A DNA stretch of 64,000 bases from Gammaproteobacteria bacterium (lineage in GTDB: Bacteria > Pseudomonadota > Gammaproteobacteria > Steroidobacterales > Steroidobacteraceae). The notes below the pieces were generated by a model. The model ran no database searches. It was not told the origin of the DNA and was given only the letters and a program-made list of their open reading frames with translations. Position numbers and translations under genes: made by a program. The DNA lies in the NCBI GenBank assembly GCA_037443765.1, contig JBBINS010000002.1:7820-71819 (forward strand). Direction: 5' to 3'. Below are positions 3,754-58,593 of the stretch, piece by piece (position 1 is the first letter of the stretch; each line of letters starts with the position of its first letter).

Positions 3754-3756
3754 TCC

Positions 3757-10975: not shown

Positions 10976-11120
10976 CGCGGAGCAGCGGGGCCGGCGGGTC
11001 GGGGTGGGCGGCCCGAATGATATCAGGCGGCCTCCGGAGCCACGTCGCGGGTACCCCGCACCCGCCCCCGACGCCGCGAGGACTCGCGCCCGCCAGCGCC
11101 GCTGCGGCGCAAGCGCCGAA

Positions 11121-19229: not shown

Positions 19230-19250
19230 CGGGGGCTCGCTCGGCGATTC

Positions 19251-20979: not shown

Positions 20980-21060
20980 CTCCGCTGCTCCGTTCGATTC
21001 CGCGAGTTATGCCGGCACGGCCGGTCCATTTCACTCAAGTTATGTTACGAATACCGTGGC

Positions 21061-26914: not shown

Positions 26915-27510
26915 TCCTTGACCTTGAACTCCGGCTGCTGCGCGCTCTGCCGGTCGGAAATCTTGAGCTCGAGATACTTCGCGCCGACGCCCTTCTCGAA
27001 GTTCAGGTTCGCACCACGCTTGTAGTCGCGCTCGTGCGGCCCCTTGCCCGTGAAGAAGGCGACCAGCTCGTGCTTGCCGGTCTTCAGGTTGCCGATGAAG
27101 ACGCGGTGGACGCCGCCGCGATTCAGGGCCTCGACCTCACGGTCCGTGTACAGATAGTTCGCTACTACCTTGTTGTCGAGCCTGATCTGCACCGAATCCA
27201 GTTCGAAGAAGGTGCCGACGTCGAGCGACAGGAACACCGCGACCTGGGTGTTCGCGGGGAACAGCAGTTCTTCCTCGAGCATGAACAGGTCGCGATTGAG
27301 GTCGAGGACCTCCTTCTTGAGACCCTGGACCTCGCCGTCGAGGCTCTTGAAGTCGCCACCGCTGGCGGCCGGTGCCGCCGGAGCGCCTGCCGGGACTGCG
27401 GCCGGGGCCTCGTCGGCGGGCGGCGTGGCGCCGGCCGGCGCGGCGAGCGCGAGCAGCGCGCAGGCCGCGGCCGAGCGGATGAACAGTGCGAGAGATTTGG
27501 TGGTTACCAT
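26905..27510 (-). CDS. Secreted hypothetical protein (coiled-coil plus beta-rich domain)
   Basis: ATG at 27510 gives MVTTKSLALFIRSAAACALLALAAPAGA (signal peptide). Overlaps the downstream gene start by 10 nt. Confidence 0.65.
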   Translation of the reverse strand: MVTTKSLALFIRSAAACALLALAAPAGATPPADEAPAAVPAGAPAAPAASGGDFKSLDGEVQGLKKEVLDLNRDLFMLEEELLFPANTQVAVFLSLDVGTFFELDSVQIRLDNKVVANYLYTDREVEALNRGGVHRVFIGNLKTGKHELVAFFTGKGPHERDYKRGANLNFEKGVGAKYLELKISDRQSAQQPEFKVKEWE

Positions 27511-27677
27511 CGTCCGAGCCTTTCTGGTCATGCGCGCCGGAGCGCGCCGGTAAGCCAAAGCAGCCAGCGGGGCAGCCGGAGCGCGGAGCGCATCGCGGTG
27601 CGGCGACGCGAGCCTCTGCCGCAGTCGAGCATCGCCATTGCAATCCGAGGGCTGTCCATCGCGGTCTCCGTCAGTCG

Positions 27678-28253
27678 CTATTCGTCGAGAAGCTGCCGGA
27701 CCTCGGCGACGAGGTCGGCGTCGCCGGCGGCATCCAGCTCGCCGTGCGCGTAGCGCACGACGCCGGCGCGGTCGATCAGCAGCGTCAGCGGCACGTCCGG
27801 CACCGAGAAGCGACGGCCGAGGACCTTGTCCGCGTCGACGCCGTTGCGGAACTTGGCGCCGACCGCGCGCGCCAGCTCGGTCGCGCGGCTCGGGTCGTCG
27901 TCGAGGCTGATGCCGACGACGACCAGGCCGGCCTGCGCGTAAGTCGCATCGAGCTTCGCAAGACGCTCAAGGTACGTCCGGCACGACCCGCACCAGCTGG
28001 TCCAGAAGCCGATCGCCACGACCTCGCCGCGCCGTTCGGACAGGCGGAAATTGCGGCCGGTACCGGAGAACAGGCGCTGCACGATCTCGGGCGCCGGCTT
28101 GCCGATCAGCGGGTGATGCGCAGCGGGATCCGCCGCGCTCGAGGTCGCGACGACGCCGATGAGCGCGAGTGCGAGCACGAGGCACGCAGCACTGCGCCGG
28201 GACCGGGCATTCAACAGAGACAGCCGCCGCACCACCGTCGCCACGAACTCCAT
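27678..28253 (-). CDS. TlpA-like periplasmic thiol:disulfide oxidoreductase
   Basis: Signal/anchor plus a WCGSC redox motif in a thioredoxin-fold context (VVAIGFWTSWCGSCRTYL). Confidence 0.85.
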   Translation of the reverse strand: MEFVATVVRRLSLLNARSRRSAACLVLALALIGVVATSSAADPAAHHPLIGKPAPEIVQRLFSGTGRNFRLSERRGEVVAIGFWTSWCGSCRTYLERLAKLDATYAQAGLVVVGISLDDDPSRATELARAVGAKFRNGVDADKVLGRRFSVPDVPLTLLIDRAGVVRYAHGELDAAGDADLVAEVRQLLDE

Positions 28254-28587
28254 GTTGTCGAGCCCAGGGCAACACGCTCAGCTCGCGTGTCGCGAGCGGC
28301 TGGCGTCCAGCGACGCACGGGCCGCCACAAAACCGGACACGGCCACTCGCGGCAACCCCGCTTTCCGTCGTTCAACGGACCGGTAGCTTTGCGTCCTCGC
28401 CTCGCGACGAGTTTGCCCTTGGCAGATTTTGTAAAGCTCGCACGCACGCCCGGCACTGTCAACGCGCAGGAACGACACAGAGTGATGGACGCTTCACAAA
28501 AACGCCCGCTAGCGGTTTTGAGCTATTCCGAGTCGCCGGATGGCGACAGGCGCACGCACCACCCGCGCCATCACGGCGTGGGACGTG

Positions 28588-29952
28588 TCACGCGCCGTCG
28601 GCTCGCTCGCCGTTGCGATGCAGGCGTTCGAGGAGCCCGCGCAGCGCGCTGCGGGCCTGTGCCGCGGGCAGGAGGCCCTGCTCGGCGACGATCCGCGTCA
28701 GCTCGTCGAGTGACCGCCGCCCGTCGACGAGCGCGAGCAGCACGGCCTGGATGCGGCTGGCGTCCGCCGCGAGCGCCAGCGCGTCGGAGCGCGGCACGGG
28801 CACGGAACCGTCTCGCAACCACGGCGGCGCGGTGGACTCCTCCGGCTCGCGCGGTCCGCGGCGACGCTTGTCGGCCGCAAACAGCGCCACCGTCTCGACG
28901 CGGCCGTGCCGGCTCGCGGGTGAGCGCATGTAGGGCAGCGTGGCATCGCGCTGCGAGGCGACCTCGAAGCCCGCCGCGGTCACGATGTCGCGCACCTCCT
29001 CGGGCCCGTACCGGAGACCCGGGCGGCGCCACGGGAACGCGAGCGACCCGAAGTTGACCCAGCGCCCCCCCGGCACGAGCAACCGGTTGATCGCGAGCGC
29101 GACCGATTCAAAATCGAGGTCGACGATGTCGATGAGCCACGGCGTGACGACCGCGTCGAAGCTCTGCGCCGCAAACGGCGCGCGCCAGGCGTCGGCAAAC
29201 ACGAGCTCGAGGCCCGGCCGTGCGGGCGCCGGCGCCGCCAGCTCGCGCCGGATGGCTGCATCGGCGCCCGTGCGCGGGGCGATCGGGAACTCGTACAGCT
29301 CGACCCGGCCGCCACGGACCACACGCTCGGCGACGAGCAGCAGCAGCGGGTTGATGTCGAGCGCGACGGTCAGCGACTGCGCACCGTGTTGGTGCAGGTC
29401 GTACGCGAGCCGTCCGCCGCCGGCGCCGAGCACGAGCAAGCGCCCGCCTCGCCCGGCGAGCGCCGCCGCCACCTCCGCGTGCGAGGCTTCGTTCTCCTCG
29501 GTGCCCCAGCACCAGTCGCGGTGCACGTTGGCGTAGTAGGAATGCAGGTCCTGGCTGAGGGGCAGGCGCTCGCCGAACGCGAGCGGCGTCGCGCGCGGCA
29601 TCGGCAGCGGCGCGAGCATCAGCGGCTGCAGCAGGAGCCGCACCAGGCGTGCCTGCTCGCGGTAGGCGTCGCGGAGCGCGACCAGCCGGCTTCGGGTGCT
29701 GTCCCGGGGGGCAATCACCAGGTCGGCCTCCGCGGCGCGCTCGGCGGCCGCAAACTCCTCGAGATACAGCGTCAGGCGATTGCGCCATTCCCCGAGGGCG
29801 AGTTCGGGGTCCGCGAACAGCCACGGCAGGCCGTCGAGCCGCGGGTACTCGACGCGGCAGCCGCGGCACGCAAAACCGTCGGTCGCCGCCACCAGCGGCG
29901 CGCGCCGGCAGCGCGGGCACTGCAGCGAGTCGAGGAAACCGGGATCCGCCAT
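28588..29952 (-). CDS. SAM-dependent methyltransferase with N-terminal zinc ribbon and C-terminal winged-helix-like tail
   Basis: CPRC...CRGC Trm112-like ribbon and LVLGAGGGRLAYDL SAM motif I. I preferred the ATG at 29952 over the TTG at 29970. Confidence 0.8.
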   Translation of the reverse strand: MADPGFLDSLQCPRCRRAPLVAATDGFACRGCRVEYPRLDGLPWLFADPELALGEWRNRLTLYLEEFAAAERAAEADLVIAPRDSTRSRLVALRDAYREQARLVRLLLQPLMLAPLPMPRATPLAFGERLPLSQDLHSYYANVHRDWCWGTEENEASHAEVAAALAGRGGRLLVLGAGGGRLAYDLHQHGAQSLTVALDINPLLLLVAERVVRGGRVELYEFPIAPRTGADAAIRRELAAPAPARPGLELVFADAWRAPFAAQSFDAVVTPWLIDIVDLDFESVALAINRLLVPGGRWVNFGSLAFPWRRPGLRYGPEEVRDIVTAAGFEVASQRDATLPYMRSPASRHGRVETVALFAADKRRRGPREPEESTAPPWLRDGSVPVPRSDALALAADASRIQAVLLALVDGRRSLDELTRIVAEQGLLPAAQARSALRGLLERLHRNGERADGA

Positions 29953-30032
29953 GGGCACAGCATGCCGCAAGGAGCCACCGGACGCAGCCCGGCCCGCCCC
30001 GGACGGGCGGGCCGCCGGCGGTCGGCGTCGCG

Positions 30033-31646
30033 TCAGCCGCCGATCTTGCCGTTGACGATCGGGGCGAAGGCCGTCAGCGCGTCGAGCGCCGAGCCCGTAC
30101 CGAGCGCCTGGTCCGGGAAGACCTGCGAGAACATGGCCTGCTGGCCGTGCAGCGCCATGTAGTTGAGGAGCACCGTCTGCACGAGCAGCAGCACGTTGTT
30201 CGCCGCGGGACTTGCGGACGCGTCGACGTTGCCGCCCGGGTTCGTGAATGCCCCGATCTGCTGGTGACGGGCCGCCGCCAGCCCGCCGGCGCCGTCGAGC
30301 AGCTGCGGCCGTCCGCCGGGGTTATAGACGAGGAAGTAGGTCGCGGCGACGCCGCCGTTGTCGCTCGTCCACATGAACTTGCCGCGGCCGTCGACCGAGG
30401 TGTCGACCTGGCCACCGGCGGAGATGCCGCCGTCGCTGAACACGTAGACCATCAGCGGCTTCTGCATGCGCGCCGCATATTCGAGGCAGGCGCCGATGCA
30501 GCGGCCGGCACGCAGGTCGCGCAGCTCGCCGGTCGCCCGGCCCTGTCCGTGGTAGTCGTAGCCGCCCATGCTGATCGTGCCGGCCCCCGCGTAGCCGTTG
30601 ACGACCATCTTCATGATCGCGGCCGTCTTCTGGAACTCCGGATCGCCCTGATACTCGGCCTGGCTGAAGATACCCGAGCCGCGGGTCGCGCTCTGGTCGA
30701 CGATCTGCGGATCGAGGTCGGGGTTGAGCGCCGACGGGCTGGAGAAGTTCTCGGCGAGGTACGCCGACTTCACGTAGTTGCAGTTGGCCGCGGACTTCAC
30801 GGCGGCGTCGGCCGCGAGCTGAGTCGAGACGTTGGAGAACTTCTGGCCGCTGATGCGCGACATCGACTCGAGCACCGAGACCGCGTCGGCCGGGTTCGTG
30901 AAGAGCTGGCCGAGCACGCCGGTGTCGACCAGGCCGGTGACGTTGCTCGCCTGGGTCACGACGGTGGGCGTCAGCGCCGGATTGACCATCGACAGCGGCG
31001 CCATCGAGTTGCCGCCGGACTGGCTCGCCTGCGAGCCGATCAGCGTCAGCAGCTCGCCCTTGGCGCCGGCCATCGCGATGCCGTACATCGGATTGTGCGG
31101 GTTCGTGTTCGTGTCGTTGTTCGACAGCGCCGGGATCACGACGCCGTTGGTGGCCGCCTGCGTCGAGGGCGCCGTCCGTTCGAGAATGCCGCGGACGTGC
31201 GCGCTGTCGGAGTGGAACAGCAGGCCGAGCCGGTTCTCGATAAAGCTGCCCGTCGCGGAGGAGTTCGGCACCATGCTGCCGGGCAGACCCATCGCGCCGT
31301 ACGCCGCCGTCGGCAGGAAGTCGGTCTGACCGCCGGCGCCGCCCACGAGCACGTTGGAGCCGGCGATGTTGCCGCCGCCCGCGAGATCGAAGCAGATGAA
31401 CGGGATCTTGCCGGCACCGCCCGTGATGCCGCAGGCGACCTTCTGCGCCAGGATGTCCGGATCGAGCGCCATCGCCCGCCCCGGATTGAGGAGCAGCCCG
31501 AGCGCCGTCGGCGCGATGACCGTGGCGGAGCCCGTCATGAAGCCCTGCGCGATGAAGTCGCGCCGCGTGACGGGACGCTTGTGGGACCCGTGGCGGATCG
31601 GCTCGTCCAGCTCGAGGGTCCGCGGCGGCTTGTTCCGGATGATCAT
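30033..31646 (-). CDS. Tat-exported DUF1501/DUF1552-like protein
   Basis: ATG at 31646 with GAGG upstream. Twin-arginine motif TRRDFIAQG, a GGGN loop near the N-terminus and an MGGYDYHG motif. Confidence 0.7.
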   Translation of the reverse strand: MIIRNKPPRTLELDEPIRHGSHKRPVTRRDFIAQGFMTGSATVIAPTALGLLLNPGRAMALDPDILAQKVACGITGGAGKIPFICFDLAGGGNIAGSNVLVGGAGGQTDFLPTAAYGAMGLPGSMVPNSSATGSFIENRLGLLFHSDSAHVRGILERTAPSTQAATNGVVIPALSNNDTNTNPHNPMYGIAMAGAKGELLTLIGSQASQSGGNSMAPLSMVNPALTPTVVTQASNVTGLVDTGVLGQLFTNPADAVSVLESMSRISGQKFSNVSTQLAADAAVKSAANCNYVKSAYLAENFSSPSALNPDLDPQIVDQSATRGSGIFSQAEYQGDPEFQKTAAIMKMVVNGYAGAGTISMGGYDYHGQGRATGELRDLRAGRCIGACLEYAARMQKPLMVYVFSDGGISAGGQVDTSVDGRGKFMWTSDNGGVAATYFLVYNPGGRPQLLDGAGGLAAARHQQIGAFTNPGGNVDASASPAANNVLLLVQTVLLNYMALHGQQAMFSQVFPDQALGTGSALDALTAFAPIVNGKIGG

Positions 31647-31668
31647 GATGATTGCCTCGATAGTTCCG

Positions 31669-34197
31669 TTACTGCACCAGCATCGCGGCACTGCCCGCGA
31701 CGGCCGCGCAGGCGGCCTTCGCAATCGTCGCGGTGCCCGTCGTATCCGCCGACACGGATGCCGCCAGCTTGTCGATCAGTGCGTTGACCTCGGTCGTGAC
31801 CGACGCCGCGGACGGCTGGGTGGCCAGGAACTTGCCCGCCGCCGTGTTGGCGGTGAGCATCTGGTTGATCAGCGGCGTGATCAGCGCGTTGCGGCCATTC
31901 GTGTCGTAGGCCGCCGCCGGCGCCGCCCCGAAGTTCAGGCCCGGGAAGTACGCCGGGGCGAGCGTCGGGTCGCGAACCAGCGCGTCGCAGTACTGGATCG
32001 ACAGCTGCGCGATCGCGGTCTGGTGCGACGCAACGAAGGCCTGGAAGTCCGTCACCGCCGGCAGCGACTGCTGCAGCTTCGTGTACAGCGCGCTGACCGC
32101 CGCGTTGGTCTTCGGCACCGTGGTCATCGTCGACAGCGTCGTATTGATCCGCTCGAAGGTCCGCACGCCGATGTCCGACGGCAGCGGCGAATCGGTCGGG
32201 ATCGGCGCGATCGGCGTCGGATCGGTGTGCACGTGGGTCGCGGTCCCGATCTGCTCGAACGTCAGGAAGAACTGGTCGTACGACGGCCCCTTCTGCAGCG
32301 CGATCGTCGTACCCACCTTCGACAGCGCGACGGCACTGACGGCGCTCTTGGTCGGGTCGAAGCCCTGGCCGGTCACCGTCGTATTCAGCGGCGCGTACGC
32401 CTGGCCGACCGCTGCCTCGGCGCCGTTCACGCCGATGCGCATGCCCTTGATGACCAAGCCGCTGTAGTTGACCGTCGGATCGAGGCTCAGGAACACCGGC
32501 TGGTCGAACAGGTACGAGTAGCTGTCGTACTGCGACACCACGAACATCACGTAGCTCTGGTTGAGGCCCGTGAACTTGTCGACGTTGAACAGCAGGTAGT
32601 AGCGCTCGCCGACGCCGGCATTGAAGTTGGACTGCACATCGCTCGCCGACATGGCCTTGTTGTAGAGCGCGACCATCTTGATCAGTCCCGAGAACGGCCG
32701 GTCCGACGAGACCTCGTTGCCGAGCACGAGCGCGAAGGTATTGTCCCACTGCGACAGCGAGCCGCCCTTCTGCGGGTCACCGCTCGCGACCAGCGCGCCG
32801 TTGACGTAGATCTGGCGGCCGTTGATCGGATCGTAGGTCATCACGACGTGCTGCAGCGACGCCTGCAGGACCTGCTTCGCGTTCGGCGTCGACAGCGGCG
32901 GCATTCCGTTCGCGTCGGTGTTCGTGCTGCGCACGAACGCGTCGTAGTTGTACTGCGTCTGGCCGAGCGTGAAGTTCCGCTGCGTCGTGCCACCCGAGTA
33001 GGAAACGATGTACGCCTGCGTCTGCGTCACGTTGGCCGGCGCGACCCACGCCTCGACGCTGTACTCGCCCGTCGTCAGGATCATGTCGTGCAGCTTCGCG
33101 CTGCCGGTGGTCGTGCCCTGCAGCTTGCCCTTGTTCTGCACCTGCACGCCCCAGCCGCCGACCCAGGTCACGTCGCCCGACATGTCGAGGTTCAGCGCCG
33201 GTTCGACGCCGCTCGTGTCGTAGGCGACCGTGCCGGTTCCGGTCTTGAACTCGAACTTGGCGATCAGCCCCGTCTCGACGCGCGAGCCGCCGTTGTCGAC
33301 GACGCCGTCGTACAGCGTCAGCGCCTTCGACAGGACGAGGTTCGGGTCGACCTGCGTGATCGGCACCTGGTTCGCGAACGCCTGGATCGCGGCCAGCATC
33401 TGGGCCGATGCCGCGGCGCAGTCGCCGCCCCAGCAGTTGTGAAACTCGTCGTGCAGGCGAACGTAGAACCGCGACAGCGCCGGCGCGTCGAGATTCATCT
33501 TCGGCTGCGCGGCCGCGTAGGCCGCGTCGACGTCGGACTGCGCGAAGTACGGCGACTGCGCCGTCACCGCGCTCGGCGAGTGGCAGCGCGAGCAGTACTG
33601 CGTCAGCAGCGGATACACCGTCGACGCGAACAGCGACGAGTTCGTCGGGAAGGTCCGCGACCCGCCGGCGTCCATGAGCGTCGGCGCGACCAGCTGCACG
33701 GCCGCCTTCGAGGCGCCCATCGTAACGCCGGCCCAGTTCTGGATCCAGGTCGTCATCGTGTCGGAGCAAGCCTGCGTGCTGGCGAGCCAGCAGTGGTGGC
33801 CGCTAGCGACCTTCGCGACGATCTTCGAGCCGGCGGGATTCGTGAGGTCGACCACCGTCTGCGCCGCCTGATAGGCCAGGTTGACGTCGTCGCTGCGGGC
33901 GAACATCGGGCTCTGGTTGCCCTGGATGTGGCACGCGCCGCACTTGTCGGTGGTCTTGACGTTGTTCCAGAAGTTGACGACGAACGCCTGGACGTCGCCG
34001 CTCGCCGGTGCCGGGCCCGTATAGCTCTGCGTACTGCTGCTGGGCGGCGTGACCGGGTTGGCGGCGGTCTGGACGCTGCCGGCGCCGCAACCGGCGACCA
34101 GCGCGCCGGCGACGACGGCCAGCGCCGCGAGGCGCAGTTGAGCCAGGACTGCCGATGTGCGCGGCAGGAGGGTATCGATTGAGCCGAAAGCCTTCAT
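31669..34197 (-). CDS. Lipoprotein with two CxxCH haem motifs and a LamG/concanavalin-like domain (842 aa)
   Basis: Lipobox LVAGC. CGACH at 33928..33942 and CSRCH at 33580..33594. LamG-like block EYSVEAWV...GLIKMVALYNKAMS. Confidence 0.8.
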   Translation of the reverse strand: MKAFGSIDTLLPRTSAVLAQLRLAALAVVAGALVAGCGAGSVQTAANPVTPPSSSTQSYTGPAPASGDVQAFVVNFWNNVKTTDKCGACHIQGNQSPMFARSDDVNLAYQAAQTVVDLTNPAGSKIVAKVASGHHCWLASTQACSDTMTTWIQNWAGVTMGASKAAVQLVAPTLMDAGGSRTFPTNSSLFASTVYPLLTQYCSRCHSPSAVTAQSPYFAQSDVDAAYAAAQPKMNLDAPALSRFYVRLHDEFHNCWGGDCAAASAQMLAAIQAFANQVPITQVDPNLVLSKALTLYDGVVDNGGSRVETGLIAKFEFKTGTGTVAYDTSGVEPALNLDMSGDVTWVGGWGVQVQNKGKLQGTTTGSAKLHDMILTTGEYSVEAWVAPANVTQTQAYIVSYSGGTTQRNFTLGQTQYNYDAFVRSTNTDANGMPPLSTPNAKQVLQASLQHVVMTYDPINGRQIYVNGALVASGDPQKGGSLSQWDNTFALVLGNEVSSDRPFSGLIKMVALYNKAMSASDVQSNFNAGVGERYYLLFNVDKFTGLNQSYVMFVVSQYDSYSYLFDQPVFLSLDPTVNYSGLVIKGMRIGVNGAEAAVGQAYAPLNTTVTGQGFDPTKSAVSAVALSKVGTTIALQKGPSYDQFFLTFEQIGTATHVHTDPTPIAPIPTDSPLPSDIGVRTFERINTTLSTMTTVPKTNAAVSALYTKLQQSLPAVTDFQAFVASHQTAIAQLSIQYCDALVRDPTLAPAYFPGLNFGAAPAAAYDTNGRNALITPLINQMLTANTAAGKFLATQPSAASVTTEVNALIDKLAASVSADTTGTATIAKAACAAVAGSAAMLVQ
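33373..33960 (-). repeat. Tandem duplicated CxxCH module inside the LamG lipoprotein (protein-level repeat)
   Basis: Two ~80-aa units share the pattern CxxCH-x(5-8)-SP[MY]FA[RQ]SD-x3-AYxAAQ-x(5)-[DN]L-x2-PAxS-x(8-10)-[HF]H[CN]CW-x(5-8)-C. Confidence 0.6.
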
Positions 34198-34210
34198 GTT
34201 CGATACTCCC

Positions 34211-35431
34211 TCAATTACCCATGCAGTAGGCAGCGGTCTCGGCGAACACGTTCTTCAGGGAGTAGCCCTGCGTGAAGTGCCCGACCATCGTGCTGACCTG
34301 GTTACGATCGGCGGCGTTCGACGGCGCGCGTAGGCAGACATTCGTGAACACCTTCTGGACCTGGCACTGCGCGAACTGGGCGCTCGCGCCGAACTCGGCG
34401 CCGAGCGACTTGGCGCCGTTGCCGCTACCGGGCTGCGACTGGTCCCAGCCCATCAGGGCGTTCTGGCCGGCGCGCCAGCGGTTGTCCCAGTGATCATCCG
34501 GCGTGATGTACCCCTGGGGGAACACGGTGTTGTTGTGGAAGTACTTGCCGACGACAGTGCCCGGCGTGTACGCGATCGCGCCGTTGTCGGTCGTGGTCGT
34601 GTCGATGTAGTCGTAGAAGGCGAAGGCCTGGGCCATCGGATCCATGCCGGAGTGGCAGCCGACGCAGTTGTTCAGGAACACGCGGCTGTCGCCGCCCGGG
34701 CTGCGGCTGACGTCCTGGCGGATCCGGTCGGTCGGCCGGCTCGTGTCCATCACCTGCGCCAGGTCCGTGCACATGTGGTTGATCATCGTGAAGCGGAACA
34801 TCCGACGGTTCGTACCGGCGCTGAAGAACGCGCGGGCGGCGGCGCGGGTCGTCAGCACGCCCGCGGTCGCGGCGGCCGGCAGCCCGGTCGTCGCGGACTG
34901 GGGGGCGCTGACCAGCACGTCGCGCAGGTTCAGCGACTGCGCTTCCATCTGCACGTAGTGATCGTTGGCGGAGTTCGAGTAGGCCGGCAGCCCGAGGCCG
35001 CTCTTGCCGACATAGATGATGTCGGCCGACAACACCGTATTGAACGGCACCTCGTCGCGCACCATGCCGACGACGGTCGCGACGTAGTCGTTGAGGGGCG
35101 CGAAGGCGGTCTGGTCCGTGTTCGTCCACGGCATCACGAAATTCTTCAGCACGACCGAGTAGAAGTTGCCGTTGGCATCGTCGATTGCGAGCAGCGCGGC
35201 ACCCTTTGCATCGCCGCCGCCGATCTTCGCCTGCATGGCGTCGAGCACGGCCTGCGTCGGCGGCGCGCCGTTCAGCCGGTCGTGGATGCGCATCGCCTGC
35301 TCGCGCGACGCCGCGAGCGCCTGCCCGGCCGGCATCGCCAGCACCGCGAGCAGCAGCGCGAGCAACGTCGCGCTCATCGCCCGCGTCGGGCGTGCTCCGT
35401 TCGTCTGCCTCATTTGCATCGCTGCGTTCAT
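34211..35431 (-). CDS. Secreted monohaem protein, DUF1588/DUF1585-like
   Basis: Signal peptide (ATLLALLLAVLAMPAGQALA). CVGCH at 34652..34666 followed by SGMDPMAQAFAFYD. The start is uncertain. Confidence 0.7.
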   Translation of the reverse strand: MNAAMQMRQTNGARPTRAMSATLLALLLAVLAMPAGQALAASREQAMRIHDRLNGAPPTQAVLDAMQAKIGGGDAKGAALLAIDDANGNFYSVVLKNFVMPWTNTDQTAFAPLNDYVATVVGMVRDEVPFNTVLSADIIYVGKSGLGLPAYSNSANDHYVQMEAQSLNLRDVLVSAPQSATTGLPAAATAGVLTTRAAARAFFSAGTNRRMFRFTMINHMCTDLAQVMDTSRPTDRIRQDVSRSPGGDSRVFLNNCVGCHSGMDPMAQAFAFYDYIDTTTTDNGAIAYTPGTVVGKYFHNNTVFPQGYITPDDHWDNRWRAGQNALMGWDQSQPGSGNGAKSLGAEFGASAQFAQCQVQKVFTNVCLRAPSNAADRNQVSTMVGHFTQGYSLKNVFAETAAYCMGN

Positions 35432-35760
35432 GGCAACTCACTCGCGGTCAGATTGAAACTCGAAACGACTATATCGATAGGCATTCGCAACGGTAATGTC
35501 TCAGGACTGCGACATTCGCGCAGATGTGAATCCCATCTCAGACCACATGAAAGTCGCTGTGCTGCGACATTACGGGCGGTGGGCGGTGCGGGTTACTCTC
35601 GCGTTATTCGAAGGCCTCGGAACACATGAATACGGGATTCGTCATGGCCGAGGCTGTGAGCGTGTTAACAGAATCTGGTGTCGGCGGACGACATGATGCG
35701 GTTCGCTTCACTCGTGCTGCGCGCTTCACGCGCGGCGCGAGCGGCGCGGCCGAAGCGAGG

Positions 35761-38634
35761 ATGCGGATGGATACGTGGAACGGAACACTGCTGGTACGCG
35801 CGCAGCGCCTGCTCGTCGTCGGCATCGTCGCGGTGCTCGCAGCCGCGTGCTCGAGTAGCAGCGGCACCGCCGGCGGCGGCAACAGCGGCATCAGCCTCGG
35901 TAGCGGCGGGTCGACGAACGACCCGGTGTCGCCGGACTTCGCGATCGCCTACATCAAGCGCACGCTGCCGAAGGCCGCCGACCCGAACGCGATCACGCTC
36001 GTCGACGACCTGCGCGTACAGCGTGTTTGGAACGGCACCGCGGATGTCATCGTGCGCGAGAGCGCGAGCCCGTCGGCCGGCGAGAAGAACATCACGGCGG
36101 CGCTCGCCTGCCCGCTGGCGTCGGACCCCAACCAGAATTCGGGACCCGACCACGACGTGCGCGATCTCGACACCTCCTTCGATGGCGCGAAGCTCGTGTT
36201 CTCGTTCCGCTGCCGCCCGATCAAGAACGCCAAGGAATCGCAGCAGCCGCGCTGGACGATCTTTGAGTACAATCACGCGACCGGCAAGCTGCGCCAGGTC
36301 ATCTCGGATCCGATCGCGGCCGCGCTCGGCCACGACGTCGGCCCGCACTACCTGCCCGACGGCCGCCTCGTGTTCTCGTCGTCACGTCAGCACGACGCCA
36401 AGGCGGTGCTGATCGACGAGGGCAAGGCTCAGTTCTCTGCCGGCATCGAGGGCGACCGCAACCTGCCGGCGTTCGTGCTTCACGTGATGACGATCGCGGA
36501 CGCCAACGGCAACCCCGTCGACGGCAGCACCAGCATCCGGCAGATCTCCTTCAATACGGGCCACGATCTCGACCCGTCCGTGCTCAACGACGGCCGCATC
36601 GTGTTCACGCGCTGGGACCAGAACTCCGGTGCCGGCATGCACCTCTACGCCATCGACCCCGACGGCGGCGACATGCAACTGCTGTACGGACGCAACAGCC
36701 ACGACACGGGCAACCCGACGACGGCGCAGGGCGGCTCGCTGGTTCAATTCACGCAGGCGCGGGCGCGGCCGGATGGCAAAGTCGTCGCGCTGCTGCTGCC
36801 GTTCATGGGGACGAACTTCGGCGGCGACATCGCCCTGATCGACTCGGCCAGCTGGGTCGAGAACCTGCAGAGCGTGCTCGGCGCGACCGTGGCGCCGGGC
36901 GCGACCGGTCAGGTACGGATGGTGGTCAACGACGTCATCACGACACAGGCGCCGACCGCCAATCCGAACGCGCCGGCGGGCACGCCGGCGCCCTCCGCGC
37001 CGGCCTCGCCCGGCGGCCGCTTCTCGAGCGTCTATCCGCTGTGGGACGGGACCAACCGGCTGCTCGTCACATGGTCGCAGTGCCGGCTGACGATCCAGAC
37101 CCTCGTCGTCCCCTGCACCTCGGACAACCTCGCGAACGCCACGGCCGTGCCGGCTCCGACGATCTACAGCGTCTGGATCTACGACCCCACCAACAACACG
37201 CAGCTGCCCATCGCGCCGCCGGTCGAGGGCATCATGTACACGAACGTGGTCGCGCTGCAGCCGCGACTGCCGACCCCGACGCCGATCCCGGACGCCCAGC
37301 CGAGCACGACCGGGTCCTATACGTTCACGCTCGCCGCCGAGGGCGTCGGCATCCTCGATATAAAGAGCGTCTACGACTTCGACGGCGTCGACACGGCGCC
37401 GGGCGGCATCGCCGCCGTCCGCGACCCGACGACGCGCGTGGCGAGCCCGACCCGGCCGCGCTTCGTGCGCATCGAGAAGGCCGTGAGCCTGCCCGACAAG
37501 GAGGTGCTGCCGAACGCCGCCCTCCCCAACTTCGCCTTCGGCGCCGCCGGCAACTTCATGCGCGAAATCATCGGCTACGCGCCGGTGGAACCGGACGGCT
37601 CGGTGCGTGTGACGGTGCCGTCGAATATTCCCTTCCAGATCAGCATCCTCGATGCCAACGGCCGGCGCCTCGACGGCGCCTTCCCGCGTCATCGCGCCTG
37701 GCTGCAGGTCCGCACTGGCGAGACGGTGGTCTGCAACGGCTGCCACACCCAGCAGCAGATTCCGCCGTCGAATTCGCACGGCCGCACGGGACTGTTCTCG
37801 CTCGTGAATACGGGTGCAGCCGCCGGCGTGGCGTTCCCGAACACGGCCCTGCAAGTGACCAACCGCACCGGTGCCAACGTGGCCCCGGCCCGCCTGCCGA
37901 ACGGCGGCGAAACGATGGCCGAGTACCGCGCCGCGGAGCAGGTCACCTGCGTCGACGTGGCGTGCTCGGCCAACCCGGCGGTCGATCTCGTCTTCGCCGA
38001 CGTATGGACGATCACCGGCGTGGGCACGGCCGATCCGGCGTTCTCATGGACCTACGCGCAGCTTGGGACGCCCGCCCCGGTCCGCGCCGACTGCGAGACC
38101 AACTGGCAGGGCAACTGCCGGATCACGATCCATTACCCGCTGCACATCGCCCCGCTCTGGACCAGTCCGCGGTCGACCATCACCGCGATCGACCCGACGT
38201 CGACGGTGGCGTACACGACCTGCACGGGCTGTCACAGCCCCAAGACGACCGCGGGCGTCAAGCAGGTCCCCGCCGGCCAGCTCGACCTCTCCAGCTCGCC
38301 GGCCTCGACCAATCCCTGCGTCCAGCAGGAGTTCACGTCCTTCTGCCAGCTGCTGTTCCCGCACCCGCAGCTCGACCCTGTTACTATGCAGCCGGTCATC
38401 GTGCCCGGACCGCCGGACCCGGTGACGGGCCTGCCCACGCAGGTCATCGTTCAGGTCAATCCGCCAATGAGCGGCGCGGGAGCGAATGCTTCGGCGGCCT
38501 TCTTCAACGAGTTCGCCACCGGTGGCACGCACGCCGGCTGGCTGACCGGGGCCGAGCTGAAGCTGATCTCCGAGTGGCTCGACATCGGCGCCCAGTACTA
38601 CAACGATCCGTTCGCGATCCCACCTGCCAACTGA
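35761..38634 (+). CDS. Lipoprotein with PD40/TolB-like beta-propeller repeats and two CxxCH motifs (HzsA-related-like)
   Basis: Lipobox LAAAC. PD40-like blades. CNGCH at 37732..37746 and CTGCH at 38221..38235. Start at ATG 35761 or 35767. Confidence 0.8.
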   Translation: MRMDTWNGTLLVRAQRLLVVGIVAVLAAACSSSSGTAGGGNSGISLGSGGSTNDPVSPDFAIAYIKRTLPKAADPNAITLVDDLRVQRVWNGTADVIVRESASPSAGEKNITAALACPLASDPNQNSGPDHDVRDLDTSFDGAKLVFSFRCRPIKNAKESQQPRWTIFEYNHATGKLRQVISDPIAAALGHDVGPHYLPDGRLVFSSSRQHDAKAVLIDEGKAQFSAGIEGDRNLPAFVLHVMTIADANGNPVDGSTSIRQISFNTGHDLDPSVLNDGRIVFTRWDQNSGAGMHLYAIDPDGGDMQLLYGRNSHDTGNPTTAQGGSLVQFTQARARPDGKVVALLLPFMGTNFGGDIALIDSASWVENLQSVLGATVAPGATGQVRMVVNDVITTQAPTANPNAPAGTPAPSAPASPGGRFSSVYPLWDGTNRLLVTWSQCRLTIQTLVVPCTSDNLANATAVPAPTIYSVWIYDPTNNTQLPIAPPVEGIMYTNVVALQPRLPTPTPIPDAQPSTTGSYTFTLAAEGVGILDIKSVYDFDGVDTAPGGIAAVRDPTTRVASPTRPRFVRIEKAVSLPDKEVLPNAALPNFAFGAAGNFMREIIGYAPVEPDGSVRVTVPSNIPFQISILDANGRRLDGAFPRHRAWLQVRTGETVVCNGCHTQQQIPPSNSHGRTGLFSLVNTGAAAGVAFPNTALQVTNRTGANVAPARLPNGGETMAEYRAAEQVTCVDVACSANPAVDLVFADVWTITGVGTADPAFSWTYAQLGTPAPVRADCETNWQGNCRITIHYPLHIAPLWTSPRSTITAIDPTSTVAYTTCTGCHSPKTTAGVKQVPAGQLDLSSSPASTNPCVQQEFTSFCQLLFPHPQLDPVTMQPVIVPGPPDPVTGLPTQVIVQVNPPMSGAGANASAAFFNEFATGGTHAGWLTGAELKLISEWLDIGAQYYNDPFAIPPAN

Positions 38635-38638
38635 CCGA

Positions 38639-39412
38639 ATGCGTACAGTTCTGAAGCTCGCGAGCTTACTTATTCTGGCAACGGCGGCGGGACTCGCGCA
38701 CTCGGCAGACGGCGCGCGGCAATTCGACCGCGACGCCGGCCGCTACGTCGACGTCGCCGTCGCCGACCCCTACCTCGAACTGCACACCGGTGCTGGCGCG
38801 AGCTACCCGGTATTCCGCGTCATCCCGCGCGGCGAGCACATCGAGATCCTGTTCCGGCGCACCGACTGGTTCAAGGTCCGCGACGACCACGACCGCGAGG
38901 GCTGGGCGCACCGCGACAACATGCAGGAGACCCTGCTCGCGTCGGGCGAGAAGCTGCCGCTCGAGGACCTGTCGCACCGTGACTTCGACATCTGGCCGTG
39001 GGAATCCGGCGTCCAGAGCGGCAACTTCGGCGGCGGCAACGTCAACAGCATCTACGTCGGCTATTCGCTGAACCCGAACCTGGCCACCGAGCTCGGCGTG
39101 TCACAGACCCTCGGGCGCTCCGCCAATGGCGTGCTCGCGGTCCTTGGCCTCACACACTCGCCGCGTCCCGACTGGCGCCTCGCGCCGTTCGTGCAGCTCG
39201 GCAGCGGTGTCATCAGGATCCAGCCGAAGGCGACGATCATCTCGCCGCCGGAGCGCACCGAACAGGTCGCCTACTACGGCGCCGGCGTCAAATGGTACCT
39301 GTCGCGTCGCTTCATCCTGCGTGCGGACTACCGCAGCTACGTGCTCTTCACGCGACGCGACACAAACGAGGATCGGAACGAATGGAAAGCAGGCTTCGCG
39401 TTCTTCTTCTGA
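38639..39412 (+). CDS. Outer-membrane beta-barrel protein with N-terminal SH3-like domain
   Basis: Signal peptide, an SH3_3-like segment (YPVFRVIPRGEHIEILFRRTDWFKVRDDHDREGWAH), alternating beta-strand pattern and a C-terminal ...GFAFFF. Confidence 0.75.
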   Translation: MRTVLKLASLLILATAAGLAHSADGARQFDRDAGRYVDVAVADPYLELHTGAGASYPVFRVIPRGEHIEILFRRTDWFKVRDDHDREGWAHRDNMQETLLASGEKLPLEDLSHRDFDIWPWESGVQSGNFGGGNVNSIYVGYSLNPNLATELGVSQTLGRSANGVLAVLGLTHSPRPDWRLAPFVQLGSGVIRIQPKATIISPPERTEQVAYYGAGVKWYLSRRFILRADYRSYVLFTRRDTNEDRNEWKAGFAFFF

Positions 39413-40071
39413 TCGTCTGCGCGCTCGCGCTCGGGGGCTGCTCGATGTGGCCGTTCCACAAGAAGCAGCGCGCTGAGGAATTGCCGGTCGAGGCGACGTC
39501 TGCCGAGGGCACCGCGCCCTCGGTCGTCGAACCGCAGGTCGCGCGCCGCACGGTCAAGACGCCCAAGATAAAGAACTCCAACTTCGAGATCGGACCGTAT
39601 ATCGGCACCTACAGCGCCGAGGACTTCGGCGTCAATCCCGTGCTCGGGGCCCGCCTCGTCTATCACATCAGCGAGGACTTCTTTGCGCAGGGCCTGATCG
39701 GCCGGACCACGGTCGGCCTGACGAGCTACGAACGCCTGTCGGGCGGGGCGCAGCTGCTGACCGATAGTCAGCGCAAGCTCACGTATTACAGCCTCGACTT
39801 CGGGTACAACCTGCTGCCGGGAGAGGTGTTCGTCAGCCCGCGGCGGGCGTTCAACTCGGCGCTGTACGTGACCGGCGGCGTCGGCGCGACGCACTTCGCG
39901 GGCGACAACCGCTTCACGGTCGCGATCGGGGCCGGCTACCGCCTGCTTCTGAACGACTGGCTGGCGGCGCACTTCGACGTGCGCGACAGCATCTTCGACG
40001 AGAACCTCTTGGGCACGAACAAGACGACGCACAATCTCGAGACCGGTCTCGGCGTGACCGTGTTCTTCTGA
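39382..40071 (+). CDS. Outer-membrane beta-barrel lipoprotein (OMP_myx_plus-like)
   Basis: ATG at 39382. Lipobox LGGC, beta-strand periodicity and C-terminal ...GLGVTVFF. Overlaps the upstream gene by 31 nt. Confidence 0.75.
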   Translation: MESRLRVLLLIVCALALGGCSMWPFHKKQRAEELPVEATSAEGTAPSVVEPQVARRTVKTPKIKNSNFEIGPYIGTYSAEDFGVNPVLGARLVYHISEDFFAQGLIGRTTVGLTSYERLSGGAQLLTDSQRKLTYYSLDFGYNLLPGEVFVSPRRAFNSALYVTGGVGATHFAGDNRFTVAIGAGYRLLLNDWLAAHFDVRDSIFDENLLGTNKTTHNLETGLGVTVFF

Positions 40072-40096: not shown

Positions 40097-40606
40097 ATGA
40101 GCCTGAAGTCCCTGTGCATCGCGATCGCGCTTGCCGCGAGCGCTGGCGTTTCGACGACGGCGCTCGGCGCGGACCCGATCGGGCAGCCGGCACCGGCGTT
40201 CACGCTGCCACTGCGTGGCGGCTCCGCCCCGCTCGCGCTCGACAAGCTGCGTGGACAGGTCGTGATGGTCAACTTCTGGGCGTCGTGGTGCGAGCCGTGC
40301 CGCAAGGAGTTCCCGCTGCTCGACCAGATCTACAAGAAGTACAAGGCCGCCGGCTTTACGCTCGTCGGCGTCAACGTCGAACCGGACGCGAAGGACGCGG
40401 AGAGCTTCATCGCCAAGACGCCGGTGACGTTCCCGATCCTGTTCGACAAGGACAGCGCCGTCAGCAAGCTGTACCACGTCGCCGGCATGCCGACGACCGT
40501 GCTGATCGACCGCAAGGGTGTGCTCCGCTGGGTGCACCGCAGCTACGTGCCGGGCGACGAGAACGAGTACCTGAACCAGGTTCGCGCCATTCTGATGGAG
40601 AAATAG
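40097..40606 (+). CDS. TlpA/ResA-like thioredoxin-fold protein
   Basis: Signal peptide and a WCEPC motif (VVMVNFWASWCEPCRKEFP). Confidence 0.88.
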   Translation: MSLKSLCIAIALAASAGVSTTALGADPIGQPAPAFTLPLRGGSAPLALDKLRGQVVMVNFWASWCEPCRKEFPLLDQIYKKYKAAGFTLVGVNVEPDAKDAESFIAKTPVTFPILFDKDSAVSKLYHVAGMPTTVLIDRKGVLRWVHRSYVPGDENEYLNQVRAILMEK

Positions 40607-40608: not shown

Positions 40609-40836
40609 ATGACGAAGCCCTGCTTCCTCGTGCTGCTGGCAGTGATGGCCATGACCTCGGGCTGCGGCCGGATCCAGCCTTGGGTCAAGCCGTACGAGCG
40701 CGAGCGACTCGCCGACAAGGTCATGGCCTGGGACCGCGATCCGATCGCCCAGAGCTACATCACGCACGTCCACGAGAACCGCGAGGGCGCGCACGGCGGC
40801 ACCGGCGAGGCCGGCGGCGGCTGCGGCTGCAACTGA
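40609..40836 (+). CDS. DUF4266 small lipoprotein
   Basis: 75 aa with a lipoprotein-type signal ending SGC and the characteristic C-terminal GGGCGCN. Confidence 0.8.
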   Translation: MTKPCFLVLLAVMAMTSGCGRIQPWVKPYERERLADKVMAWDRDPIAQSYITHVHENREGAHGGTGEAGGGCGCN

Positions 40837-40865: not shown

Positions 40866-42038
40866 ATGAGCTTCACCTTCAGCCTACGCCGCATCGCCTG
40901 CATGGCGGTCGCCTATCTTGCGGCGGCGAGCGCCCTCGCGGACGTCCTGCCCGAGGAGCGCGCCGACCTCAGCTGGCGCACCTACGACGGCGGCGGCCTG
41001 AAGGTGGAAGGTCCTGCGATGCTGGTCCGGAAGAACTTCTCCGACAACGTCTCCGTCAGCGCCGGGTACCAGGTCGACCAGGTGACGGGCGCCTCGATCG
41101 ACATGGTCGTGCTCGGCGCGAGCCCGCTGCACGAGGTGCGCAAGCAAAAGCAGCTCGGCGTCGACTACCTGTACGGCAAGACGACCTACAGCGTCGGCGT
41201 CGAGAGCAGCATCGAGAACGACTACGACTCGAGCAACGTCAACGCCGGCATCTCGCAGAGCATGTTCGGTGACCTGACCACGATCACGATCGGCGTCAGC
41301 CGCGGCTGGGACATCATCACGCGCGTCATCAACGCCGCGCACCAGAAGGATCCGAACTTCCGCAAGCGCCTAGACCGCAAGACCTGGTCGCTCGGCGTCT
41401 CGCAGATCCTGACGCGCAACCTGATCGCCGGCTTCGACTACGAGGCGATCACCGAGCAGGGCTATCTGCAGAACCCCTACCGGGCGATCCGCTACCTGGC
41501 CGCACCGGGCTCGACGATCTACCTGACGGCCCCGGAGGTCTTCCCGGGCACCCATACGAGCAACGCAGCCGCATTCAGGCTCAAGTACTTCCTGCCGTGG
41601 CACGCCTCGGTCGCCGGCAAGTACCGCTATTCCTTCGACACCTGGGACATCCGCGCCCAGACCGCCGAGGCCGACTACACACAGCCGTTCTTCGACGAGG
41701 CGCTGATCGCCGACCTGACCTACCGCTACTACAGGCAGAATTCGGCGTCGTTCTACTCGGACCTGTTCCAGTTCGCGAACCAGCAGAACTACATGGCGCG
41801 CGACCGGGAGCTGGCTGCCCAGGACAACAACACCGTCGGCGCCGCCGTGTCCTACGACTTCCTCAAGTCGAAGCACTGGATCGTGAAGAAGGCGTCCGGG
41901 TCGCTGCACTACGACTACATCATGTACAAGTACAAGGACTTCCGCGACGCGACGCAGCGCCAGCTGCCCGCCGGGACGGAGCCGCTCTACCACTACAACG
42001 CCAGCGTCGTGCAGGCGTTCGTCTCGATCTGGTTCTGA
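40866..42038 (+). CDS. DUF3570 domain protein (predicted flavinylated outer-membrane beta-barrel)
   Basis: Signal peptide, beta-strand periodicity and a C-terminal aromatic (..VSIWF). Carries the DQVTGAS motif. Confidence 0.85.
   Translation: MSFTFSLRRIACMAVAYLAAASALADVLPEERADLSWRTYDGGGLKVEGPAMLVRKNFSDNVSVSAGYQVDQVTGASIDMVVLGASPLHEVRKQKQLGVDYLYGKTTYSVGVESSIENDYDSSNVNAGISQSMFGDLTTITIGVSRGWDIITRVINAAHQKDPNFRKRLDRKTWSLGVSQILTRNLIAGFDYEAITEQGYLQNPYRAIRYLAAPGSTIYLTAPEVFPGTHTSNAAAFRLKYFLPWHASVAGKYRYSFDTWDIRAQTAEADYTQPFFDEALIADLTYRYYRQNSASFYSDLFQFANQQNYMARDRELAAQDNNTVGAAVSYDFLKSKHWIVKKASGSLHYDYIMYKYKDFRDATQRQLPAGTEPLYHYNASVVQAFVSIWF
41076..41096 (+). other. Candidate ApbE flavinylation site (DQVTGAS) in DUF3570
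   Basis: The codons gac cag gtg acg ggc gcc tcg match Dxx[ST]GA[ST]. apbE is the convergent neighbouring gene. Confidence 0.6.
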
Positions 42039-42062: not shown

Positions 42063-43040
42063 CTACTTCGGCGGCTCGAGGCCCTTCGTGTACCAGACCT
42101 TGCCGTACTTATCGACGACGACGGCGTCCATCTGCGGATACCGCTCGATCAGCCGGATCCCCTCGATCGGGCCCTTGATGAATACACCCTTCGACCAGCC
42201 CTCGGTGTCGGTCGCGGTCGGGCCGATGATCGTCACGCTACGCACACCGATCGGGCTCTTGCCGGTCTTCGGATCGATGATATGGTGGTACCGGATACCG
42301 CCCTCGTCGAAGAAGCGCTCGTAATCGCCCGACGTCGAAATGCCGACGTCGGCGAGCGGCATGCTGAGGACGACCTTGTTCTTGTTGTCGGGATTGCGGA
42401 TCCCGACGACCCATGGCCTCCCGCGCCGGTCGCCGAGCAGGCGCGTGTCGCCGCCGGCCATCACCATCGCGTGGGCGACCCCGAAACCCTTGAGAATCCC
42501 GACCGCCTGGTCGCAGGCGTAGCCCTTGGCGATGCCGCCGAGATCGATGCGCATGCCCTCGCGCGCGAACTTGACGGTGTGGTGCTCGGCATCAAGCACG
42601 AGGTTGCGGTAGTTGACGCCCGGCAGCGCCGCCTTGATCTCCGCGTCGCTCGGATGGATGTGGCGCGGGTAGTCGTAGAGGTAGCCGACGCTCGCGTAGG
42701 TGATGTCGAACGCGCCCTCCGTGATCTCGGAGTAGTGGATCGAGGTCTTTATCAGGTCGAAGAGCTCGGGATCGACCGCGACCGGCTCGACGGCGGCGTG
42801 CATGTTGATCCGCGAGAGCTGGCTCTCCGGCTTGTAGTGACTCATCAGCTCGTCGATGCGGCGCATGTTGTCCATGACCGCGTCGATCGCCGCCTCGCCC
42901 TGGATCCGGTCGTCGTGCCAGACCTCGACGTAGATGCGGGTCCCCATGATTGATTCTTCGCGATGCAGCCAGTCGGCGCGGGCCGGAGTGACTGCAAACA
43001 GCGACAGTGCGATGGCGAACAGACTCGCGGCAAGCTTCAT
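42063..43040 (-). CDS. apbE: FAD:protein FMN transferase
   Basis: 325 aa with a signal peptide. ApbE family motifs (IMGT..., DLGGIAKGYA, SGDYERFF, HHIIDPKTG). Confidence 0.92.
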   Translation of the reverse strand: MKLAASLFAIALSLFAVTPARADWLHREESIMGTRIYVEVWHDDRIQGEAAIDAVMDNMRRIDELMSHYKPESQLSRINMHAAVEPVAVDPELFDLIKTSIHYSEITEGAFDITYASVGYLYDYPRHIHPSDAEIKAALPGVNYRNLVLDAEHHTVKFAREGMRIDLGGIAKGYACDQAVGILKGFGVAHAMVMAGGDTRLLGDRRGRPWVVGIRNPDNKNKVVLSMPLADVGISTSGDYERFFDEGGIRYHHIIDPKTGKSPIGVRSVTIIGPTATDTEGWSKGVFIKGPIEGIRLIERYPQMDAVVVDKYGKVWYTKGLEPPK

Positions 43041-58087: not shown

Positions 58088-58311
58088 CGCCAAAATCGTC
58101 ACCCGTGACCGGCAGCAACGAGTCGGAAGCGGCTGGTTTGCACCCCGCCCATTCTTCGCCGCAGATTATCCTGAGCCGCGGTCGACGATAGACTTCCGGT
58201 AGACGTCAGCGCCGATCACGCTCTGGATTTTTCTGCAGAACCAGGCGGGGTCTTGTCTGAGGACGCCGCTAACCAGCGGATTTCTTGACGGAATTCTCGG
58301 TATAGCTTCCG

Positions 58312-58578: not shown

Positions 58579-58593
58579 ACATAATATTTCGCA

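Follow-up and report, generated by a model that had tools for sequence, protein, structure and literature searches.

Four large, adjacent genes, all of which encode proteins with export signals and three of which encode c-type haem motifs, raise the question of whether they form one system, and of what such a system might do. They lie at positions 30033 to 38634 of a 64,000-nucleotide stretch of DNA (the window) from a member of the gammaproteobacterial family Steroidobacteraceae (assembly GCA_037443765.1, contig JBBINS010000002.1, positions 7,820 to 71,819 of the forward strand), and are termed g1 to g4 here. A sequence-only reading had taken them for an expanded version of a known type of gene pair, in which a haem protein accompanies a partner exported by the twin-arginine translocation (Tat) pathway, and had placed five predicted haems at the interface of the periplasm and the outer membrane. 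Its description of the DNA was accurate: the four open reading frames (ORFs), each with an ATG start, the twin arginine of g1, the lipoboxes of g2 and g4 and all five CxxCH motifs were confirmed at the positions that it had given. The five motifs compare with 0.008 expected from the Cys/His composition of the 2,742 residues concerned, and CxxCH is absent from every neighbouring gene in the orthologous loci (n = 83). The proposed export and location are supported as well. Glycine or serine at position +2 of a lipoprotein is the usual mark of outer-membrane anchoring; because g2 and g4 have glycine or serine there, both are predicted to be anchored in the outer membrane.

Two gene strings and a conserved core

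The four genes do not make up a single unit. They belong to two divergent strings, and form the centre of an envelope redox gene cluster of about 25 kb that combines haem, flavin and thiol proteins with an exported metal-type family. In all 68 loci that have at least 9.5 kb upstream of g1, the genes g3, g2 and g1 share one strand, while g4, an SH3-domain barrel protein, an OMP_myx_plus barrel, DUF4266 and DUF3570 are encoded divergently; the redoxin of the g4 string is found in 67 of the 68. Within each string, the intergenic gaps range from a few bases to 62, or the genes overlap by 4 bases. The core consists of g3, the C-terminal domain of g2 (g2C) and g1, with g4 in a separate string. Downstream of g1 follow a second redoxin, a 217-residue protein, two TPR proteins, a small protein, ExbB, two ExbD and a TonB-like protein (48 of the 63 loci with enough downstream flank).

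The syntenic lineages are Steroidobacteraceae, whose genomes hold the closest relatives of the window genes, Microbulbifer, Paraglaciecola/Alteromonas, Sedimenticola and Woeseiaceae. The 80 loci scanned, with g1 identities of 56-89%, stand at the top of a list of at least 600 matches, and the scan used a narrower g1 alignment, not the most diverse one. Counts of CxxCH conservation given below refer to orthologues drawn from 83 related loci.

More distant relatives of g1 (31-44% identical) were available with their surrounding DNA in five contexts. Directly upstream of g1, a homologue of g2C is found in five of five; these homologues cover positions of about 650-821 of the g2 hidden Markov model (HMM), and are either stand-alone proteins of 213-279 residues or the C-terminal end of a protein cut by the end of a contig (loci L087-L089). 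A g3 homologue lies upstream of g2C in two of the five contexts, and g2-like dihaem proteins lie 3' of g1 in one. Two further contexts without DNA have the same pattern of protein sizes. Judged by homology, the core that is conserved in every context examined is g2C plus g1, with g3, often accompanied by a methyltransferase. One of the organisms, of low G+C content (L086), has two paralogous g1 genes (in the regions 570-5752 and 7974-13540). One paralogue is followed by a 1,182-residue protein with three CxxCH motifs, and the other sits in a cassette of g3, g2C, g1 and a dihaem protein, where the parts of g2 are encoded by individual genes.

Could unrelated exported proteins have become neighbours by chance? 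The sampled loci are close relatives and the linkage is one of gene order, both of which would suit such an explanation. However, synteny in 68 of 68 loci extends over several gammaproteobacterial lineages, and the triad recurs at 31-44% g1 identity in different gene fusions. A non-functional adjacency is therefore disfavoured, and seems extremely improbable.

The reading that we favour, with a probability of roughly 0.4, is that the cluster encodes an outer-membrane-associated haem/flavin/thiol electron relay serving a metal site in g1. The C-terminal domain of g2 would dock g1, and the haems of g2 and g3 would carry electrons to or from the metal centre of g1. This centre would act on a ligand that the LamG domain of g2 may hold on the inner side of the outer membrane. 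In Gammaproteobacteria, the g4 string would supply or remove electrons by a route from thiol to flavin to haem. In most genomes, a proton-motive core complex of the Agl/Glt type is also attached, placed here behind a riboswitch for cyclic di-GMP (c-di-GMP). In support of this reading there are the five conserved CxxCH sites and the absence of CxxCH from neighbouring genes, the invariant twin arginine and residues D178, D364, H366, D405 and D429 of g1, the modelled fold of g1, the mutual homology of the g2 haem domains, the synteny and tight spacing of the genes, the recurrence of g2C beside distant g1 homologues and, in the window, a TGAS motif in DUF3570, a CXC tail in DUF4266, CxxC redoxins and ApbE.

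Several points weigh against the relay. To our knowledge, the alkaline-phosphatase superfamily, which the predicted fold of g1 resembles, consists of hydrolases and transferases without a redox precedent. The fold assignment is itself weak (best Foldseek match with an E-value of 6e-3 and a template modelling (TM) score of about 0.2). No inner-membrane point of electron entry, such as DsbD/CcdA or a quinol dehydrogenase, was found in the cluster, and covalent haem, flavin and metal are all predictions only. Because the loci scanned were the closest matches, the synteny of 68 out of 68 applies to a single gammaproteobacterial clade, and could be due in part to common ancestry or to transfer as a block. 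Finally, neither g4 nor DUF3570 lies near g1 in the distant contexts examined, so the proposed wiring is not universal.

A broader version can be put forward, in which the cassette of g3, g2C and g1 (plus methyltransferase) represents a haem/metal enzyme system of the periplasm that is widespread. Its part in Gammaproteobacteria would be that of a payload joining the DUF3570 module and the Agl/Glt core into one trans-envelope redox machine, with the Agl/Glt core controlled by c-di-GMP in some lineages. We regard this extension as decidedly doubtful. What makes the locus of interest is that three published gene sets without a function meet here, namely the pairs of a cytochrome and a Tat partner, the module of DUF3570, DUF4266, thioredoxin and ApbE, and the Agl/Glt core. 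If linkage means function, work in a single genetic system could reveal what all three do. Cultured marine and soil hosts carry the cluster, for example, Microbulbifer species and Peristeroidobacter soli, which makes it testable.

The Tat-exported g1 protein and the neighbouring haem proteins

The g1 gene (30033..31646, minus strand) encodes a Tat-exported protein of 537 residues, which belongs to a family without a Pfam model and contains the strings TRRDFIAQG and MGGYDYHG. The motif [ST]RRxF[LI] is present in 65 of 83 orthologues. Among 70 family members, down to 30% identity, the residues H22, R28, R29, D178, D364, H366, D405, D429 and Q463 are invariant. The family profile weakly matches the Tat leaders of NosZ and PaoA; searches of PDB sequences with g1, g2 and g3, both as single sequences and as profiles, returned nothing but Tat-leader matches and noise. 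The n-region of the g1 leader (residues 1-27; window 31566-31646, minus strand) is unusually conserved, with P16, H22 and P25 preceding R28/R29. This pattern suggests that the leader may be recognised by a dedicated chaperone or modifying enzyme.

The family is large: one search yielded at least 8,000 candidates, and an exhaustive HMMER search yielded 1,330 or more clusters at 50% identity; a tblastn search against plasmids gave a single noise match. It represents a new family of exported proteins that currently goes under a wrong name. RefSeq orthologues (e.g., WP_138234316.1 and WP_129776797.1) are labelled 'general secretion pathway protein GspF'. A GspF identity was rejected, since none of 70 members has a T2SSF match at E<=10. 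The name is a misnomer, and looks like a propagated misannotation.

The sequence-only reading had likened g1 to DUF1501 and DUF1552, which was not supported at the level of families. No Pfam or NCBIfam model matches g1, and the 70 family members likewise have no match even at E<=10. For direct comparison, sets of the two families were fished with consensus-like queries, and only real proteins with a precomputed PF07394 or PF07586 assignment were kept. In hhalign, the g1 family scored a probability of 5.6% (P 0.0068) against DUF1501, for which the profile was narrow (about 70% identity), and of 1.0% (P 0.054) against DUF1552, while the control comparison of DUF1501 with DUF1552 reached 65% (P 6e-5). 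The HxxSHH motif of DUF1552 is absent from g1. Membership in either family was therefore rejected on the Pfam scans of g1 and its 70 relatives and on hhalign with its positive control. What is left is a resemblance of fold and an aligned D-x-H: a greedy alignment of g1 with the narrow DUF1501 profile runs collinearly through 397 columns, with GGYD364-Y-H366 set against GWD338-A-H340. As far as can be judged from alignments, g1 is like DUF1501 in layout, yet fails the tests for membership.

The pairs to which the locus had been compared are of planctomycete type, and comprise a DUF1585/1587/1588/1592/1595 haem protein with a Tat-exported DUF1552 partner, or a PSCyt/DUF1553 protein with DUF1501. 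The likeness is that g3, a CxxCH protein of PSCyt3/PSD2-like character, adjoins g1, a Tat-exported partner of about 500 residues, and that the D-x-H of g1 (GGYDYH) is found at a point corresponding to that of GWDxH in DUF1501. Neither these pairs nor g1 and g3 have an assigned function, and none was found in the literature searched, in agreement with the earlier statement to that effect. Unlike in the planctomycete-type pairs, however, g1 fits neither the DUF1501 nor the DUF1552 model and g3 stays under the Pfam thresholds, and the g2 C-terminal domain always intervenes. In the window, this domain is fused to two haem domains and LamG.

The AlphaFold model of g1 has a predicted local distance difference test score (pLDDT) of 77 and a predicted TM score of 0.80. 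In a Foldseek search against PDB, all 50 top matches belong to the alkaline-phosphatase superfamily, with sulfatases, phosphoglycerate mutases, ENPPs and alkaline phosphatases as the best structural matches, although all are weak (E>=6e-3, TM 0.1-0.2). The modelled core fold thus weakly resembles this superfamily. In the model, the invariant Asp/His residues sit after beta strands, as in bimetal sites, and a cluster of this kind is typical of a metal site. The predicted core fold and the placing of the Asp/His set would be shared with sulfatases, iPGM, ENPP and PEtN transferases. In contrast to these enzymes, g1 has no sequence-level match to any solved member of the superfamily (PDB, single sequence and profile), contains a large helical insertion at about residues 233-349 of the model, and is obligately linked to cytochromes.

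Given such a fold, it is tempting to speculate that the cluster captures and hydrolyses a substrate. In that case, g1 would act like a sulfatase or phosphatase on a polymer bound by LamG, the haems would be structural or sensory, and the TonB-like motor and the barrels would import the products. This would agree with the sulfatases, phosphoglycerate mutases, ENPPs and alkaline phosphatases among the structural matches of g1, with the concanavalin-like binding fold of LamG, with the algal-polysaccharide degraders among the hosts (Microbulbifer, Alteromonas and Paraglaciecola) and with the adjoining ExbB/ExbD/TonB-like genes. However, none of the three barrels of the cluster matches the model for TonB-dependent receptors, and the C/S-x-P-x-R signature of sulfatases is absent from the g1 sequence. 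Moreover, the conserved haem motifs, the flavinylation substrate, the two CxxC redoxins and the CXC protein are hard to explain without redox chemistry. Hydrolysis is, on balance, an unlikely account of the cluster, and an electron relay serving g1 remains the reading that we favour.

The haems of this relay would be provided in part by g2 (31669..34197, minus strand), a predicted outer-membrane lipoprotein of 842 residues, which consists of two haem c domains, LamG and the C-terminal domain (about residues 650-842). It has the lipobox LVAGC and two CxxCH motifs, CGACH at 33928-33942 (residue 86) and CSRCH at 33580-33594 (residue 202). Its haem domains, each some 100 residues long, are homologous to one another (41% identity, E 8e-10), and in each the CxxCH is followed by a conserved H-x-C-W...C motif. 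Both motifs are kept in 70 of 75 orthologues; the five exceptions are ORF calls of 491-630 residues that are probably truncated. The LamG domain that had been noticed in g2 was borne out by a match to Laminin_G_3 (PF13385) over residues 363-522 (E 4.4e-25, 89 bits against a cutoff of 27.6).

The third gene of the string, g3 (34211..35431, minus strand), encodes a Sec-exported monohaem protein of 406 residues. Its single motif, CVGCH at 34652-34666 (residue 256), lies in the context CVGCHSGMDPMAQAFAFYD, which is present in the sequence, and is kept in 72 of 72 orthologues. The suggested kinship with DUF1585/DUF1588 is upheld as a remote one: PSD2 (DUF1585) matches 33 of 38 g3 orthologues (best 6.6e-6) and PSCyt3 (DUF1588) 25 of 38, and RefSeq names some orthologues 'DUF1585 domain-containing'. 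The window protein itself stays under the Pfam threshold (14.7 bits against PSCyt3, cutoff 27), with a match to residues 254-276 that spans the CxxCH. Thus, by profile comparison, g3 appears to be a remote relative of DUF1588/DUF1585. A single-sequence structure model of g3 was unusable (pLDDT 35). Together with g4 (below), in which the motifs are kept in 65 of 70 orthologues, g2 and g3 are predicted c-type cytochromes, in that each combines conserved CxxCH with export.

The divergent string and its flavinylation-type module

The divergent string opens with g4 (35761..38634, plus strand), a predicted outer-membrane lipoprotein of 957 residues with a PD40 propeller and an HZS_alpha middle domain. 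The lipobox LAAAC and the PD40-like strings are present, as are CNGCH at 37732-37746 (residue 658) and CTGCH at 38221-38235 (residue 821); short ORF calls are included in the set of 70 orthologues in which conservation was counted. The proposal that g4 has an architecture related to HzsA was corroborated. HZS_alpha (PF18582) matches directly before the first CxxCH (E 3.3e-14, 53.6 bits against a cutoff of 26.6), PD40 scores 24.9 bits (cutoff 20.9), and the alpha subunit of hydrazine synthase (PDB 5c2v_A) is matched with an E-value of 4.4e-7 over 64 residues. RefSeq labels g4 orthologues 'HzsA-related protein'.

This likeness invites the thought that the cluster performs nitrogen-oxide, hydroxylamine or hydrazine chemistry centred on g4. 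The HZS_alpha match (E 3.3e-14) and the match to 5c2v_A (E 4.4e-7), which lies immediately before the first CxxCH, speak for it, as does the shared combination of a propeller, an HZS_alpha middle domain and two c-type haem motifs. However, the similarity to HzsA extends over about 64 residues only, the host is a non-anammox gammaproteobacterium, and no beta or gamma partner is present: no HzsB/HzsC-like protein was found among the neighbouring genes scanned. A role as hydrazine synthase was rejected, given that g4 attains 41 bits with the hydrazine_alpha equivalog (NF052339), for which the cutoff is 800. A 2025 survey (PMC12758564) found, outside the anammox bacteria, hundreds of proteins with HZS_alpha for which no function has been confirmed. 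Nitrogen chemistry of this kind is thus very improbable.

The genes that follow g4 on the plus strand are those of an SH3_3 and outer-membrane beta-barrel protein (38639..39412), a second outer-membrane beta-barrel protein (39409..40071; TIGR04565 OMP_myx_plus, E 1.1e-46), a periplasmic TlpA/redoxin-type thioredoxin-like protein with the motif WCEPC (40097..40606; redoxin E 1.8e-28), a DUF4266 lipoprotein (40609..40836; E 2.2e-22) and a DUF3570 protein (40866..42038; E 2.7e-41). Since the six genes from g4 to DUF3570 are spaced by -4 to +29 bases in the window, they are likely to be co-transcribed. DUF4266 ends in GGCGCN, a CXC motif that is kept in 65 of 66 orthologues. DUF3570 has a flavinylation-type TGAS motif at residue 79 and a second xGAS motif nine residues after it; in most of its orthologues, the published consensus is replaced by the variant [ST]SAS. 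An ApbE flavin mononucleotide transferase (42063..43040, E 1.3e-80) is encoded next to this string on the minus strand, and lies inside the locus in 18 of 83 loci.

DUF3570 has been experimentally flavinylated by ApbE, and clusters of DUF3570, DUF4266, a thioredoxin-like protein and ApbE have been reported as an uncharacterised module for extracytosolic electron transfer (Meheust et al. 2021, PMC8238504). The window contains all four of these components, including the [S/T]GA[S/T] motif, the C-terminal CXC tail, a thioredoxin-like protein with CxxC, and ApbE. One difference is the lack of a nearby DsbD: no DsbD-type membrane electron donor was found among the window genes scanned. The published clusters likewise include 316 without DsbD. 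Also unlike the DUF3570 clusters, the module here is strung with an HzsA-related dihaem lipoprotein and two barrels, and is invariably paired with g3-g2-g1. This link to g3-g2-g1 is without mention in the parts of PMC8238504 that were drawn upon.

The two strings diverge from an intergenic region between g3 and g4 that contains the inverted repeat AATGTCTCAGGACTGCGACATT (AATGTC-N10-GACATT; 35495..35516), a candidate operator. The repeat recurs in 13 of 70 orthologous g3/g4 intergenic regions, always with a spacing of N10. All 12 of its occurrences within 1.4 Mb of loci fall in the g3/g4 region and nowhere else.

The methyltransferase, the riboswitch and the Agl/Glt-type genes

Directly 3' of g1 lies a gene for a cytoplasmic S-adenosylmethionine methyltransferase of the CARME/Methyltransf_11 type (28588..29970, minus strand), which has an N-terminal CxxC...CxxC ribbon and is without a signal peptide. 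It occurs in 19 of 63 close loci and beside one g1 relative of 44% identity (E 9.5e-182), and is divergently placed in two more distant g1 contexts. Such a methyltransferase thus recurs beside g1 homologues over a wide evolutionary range (in the window, at 2648-4036 of L089 and at 5753-6979 of L086). As a possible addition to the broader version above, this CARME-like enzyme may modify g1 ahead of its export by the Tat pathway.

Between the methyltransferase gene and the redoxin/TPR/ExbBD string, and thus 5' of the latter, is a c-di-GMP-I-GGC riboswitch aptamer (28347..28426, minus strand; RF03167, 65.1 bits against a gathering threshold of 59, E 4e-13). A scan for promoters and terminators near the riboswitch and the methyltransferase gene was uninformative. 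With the covariance model, the riboswitch was found in 16 of 85 sources. In 15 of these, the window and 14 loci, it has the position seen in the window, and in the remaining one, a Woeseiaceae genome, it lies upstream of g3 (L078, 6051-6154). That the riboswitch is a universal feature was rejected on this count.

The string itself runs on the minus strand. It starts with a second thioredoxin-like redoxin with the motif WCGSC (27678..28253) and an exported 217-residue protein of no known family (26905..27558), which is conserved with the TPR genes. Two TPR proteins follow, of 658 residues (24938..26914) and 1131 residues (21546..24941), which are GltC-like and GltD-like, respectively, by size and position; their sequences gave generic TPR matches only (GltE model 36 bits against 225). 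A 162-residue protein (21061..21549) takes the place of the small GltE-like gene. The last genes encode a MotA/TolQ/ExbB proton channel of 236 residues (AglR-like; 20269..20979, PF01618), two ExbD/TolR proteins of 171 and 169 residues (AglQ/AglS-like; 19763-20272 and 19251-19766, PF02472 in both), and a GltG-like, TonB-like protein of 306 residues with an AgmX/PglI C-terminal domain (18309..19229). The domain scores 67.8 bits against a cutoff of 40 (NF033768), and GltG matches the C-terminus at 1.8e-12. Hence, a TolQ/ExbB-like protein, two TolR/ExbD-like proteins and a TonB-like protein of GltG type, which together characterise the Agl/Glt systems, are all present.

In the gammaproteobacterial core complexes, the genes for a TonB-like, two ExbD-like, an ExbB-like, a small and two large TPR proteins are likewise collinear (Luciano et al. 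2011, PMC3169522). The sizes published for them are 321-334 residues for GltG-like proteins, 162-188 for AglS/AglQ, 217-245 for AglR, 162-263 for GltE-like, 939-1016 for GltD-like and 550-692 for GltC-like proteins. The eight collinear genes at 18309-27558 (minus strand) match the complex in order and size. One difference is that the 'additional gene' described between the motor and the TPR genes is absent here. The core complex is regarded as ancestral, the gliding and spore-coat machines of Myxococcus having evolved from the gammaproteobacterial one. For the latter, the same paper (PMC3169522) gives no function and, in the parts drawn upon here, no link to a cytochrome or flavoprotein.

It might be asked, then, whether the motor rather than the redox proteins is the centre of the cluster, with g1 and the haem proteins as accessory parts or cargo of an Agl/Glt-type motor, a c-di-GMP-controlled surface process and a secondary role for redox. 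Gene order and sizes that fit the published core complexes, the AgmX/PglI C-terminal domain and the OMP_myx_plus barrel, both above their cutoffs, the adjoining operon in 48 of 63 loci and the riboswitch, upstream of the motor operon in 15 sources and of g3 in one, would all be in line with this. However, 15 of the 63 loci with enough flank have no motor beside g1, and in the distant g3-g2C-g1 cassettes no ExbBD, TonB-like or large TPR genes were found nearby. In addition, the likeness to the Glt proteins of M. xanthus rests on size, order and domain matches. A motor-centred system is therefore rather improbable, and in terms of the favoured electron relay the Agl/Glt-type complex would be an attachment of most genomes.

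As for the window as a whole, no tRNA genes were found in it. Its G+C content is about 70%, and falls from about 0.70 elsewhere to 0.58-0.63 at positions 58001-64000.

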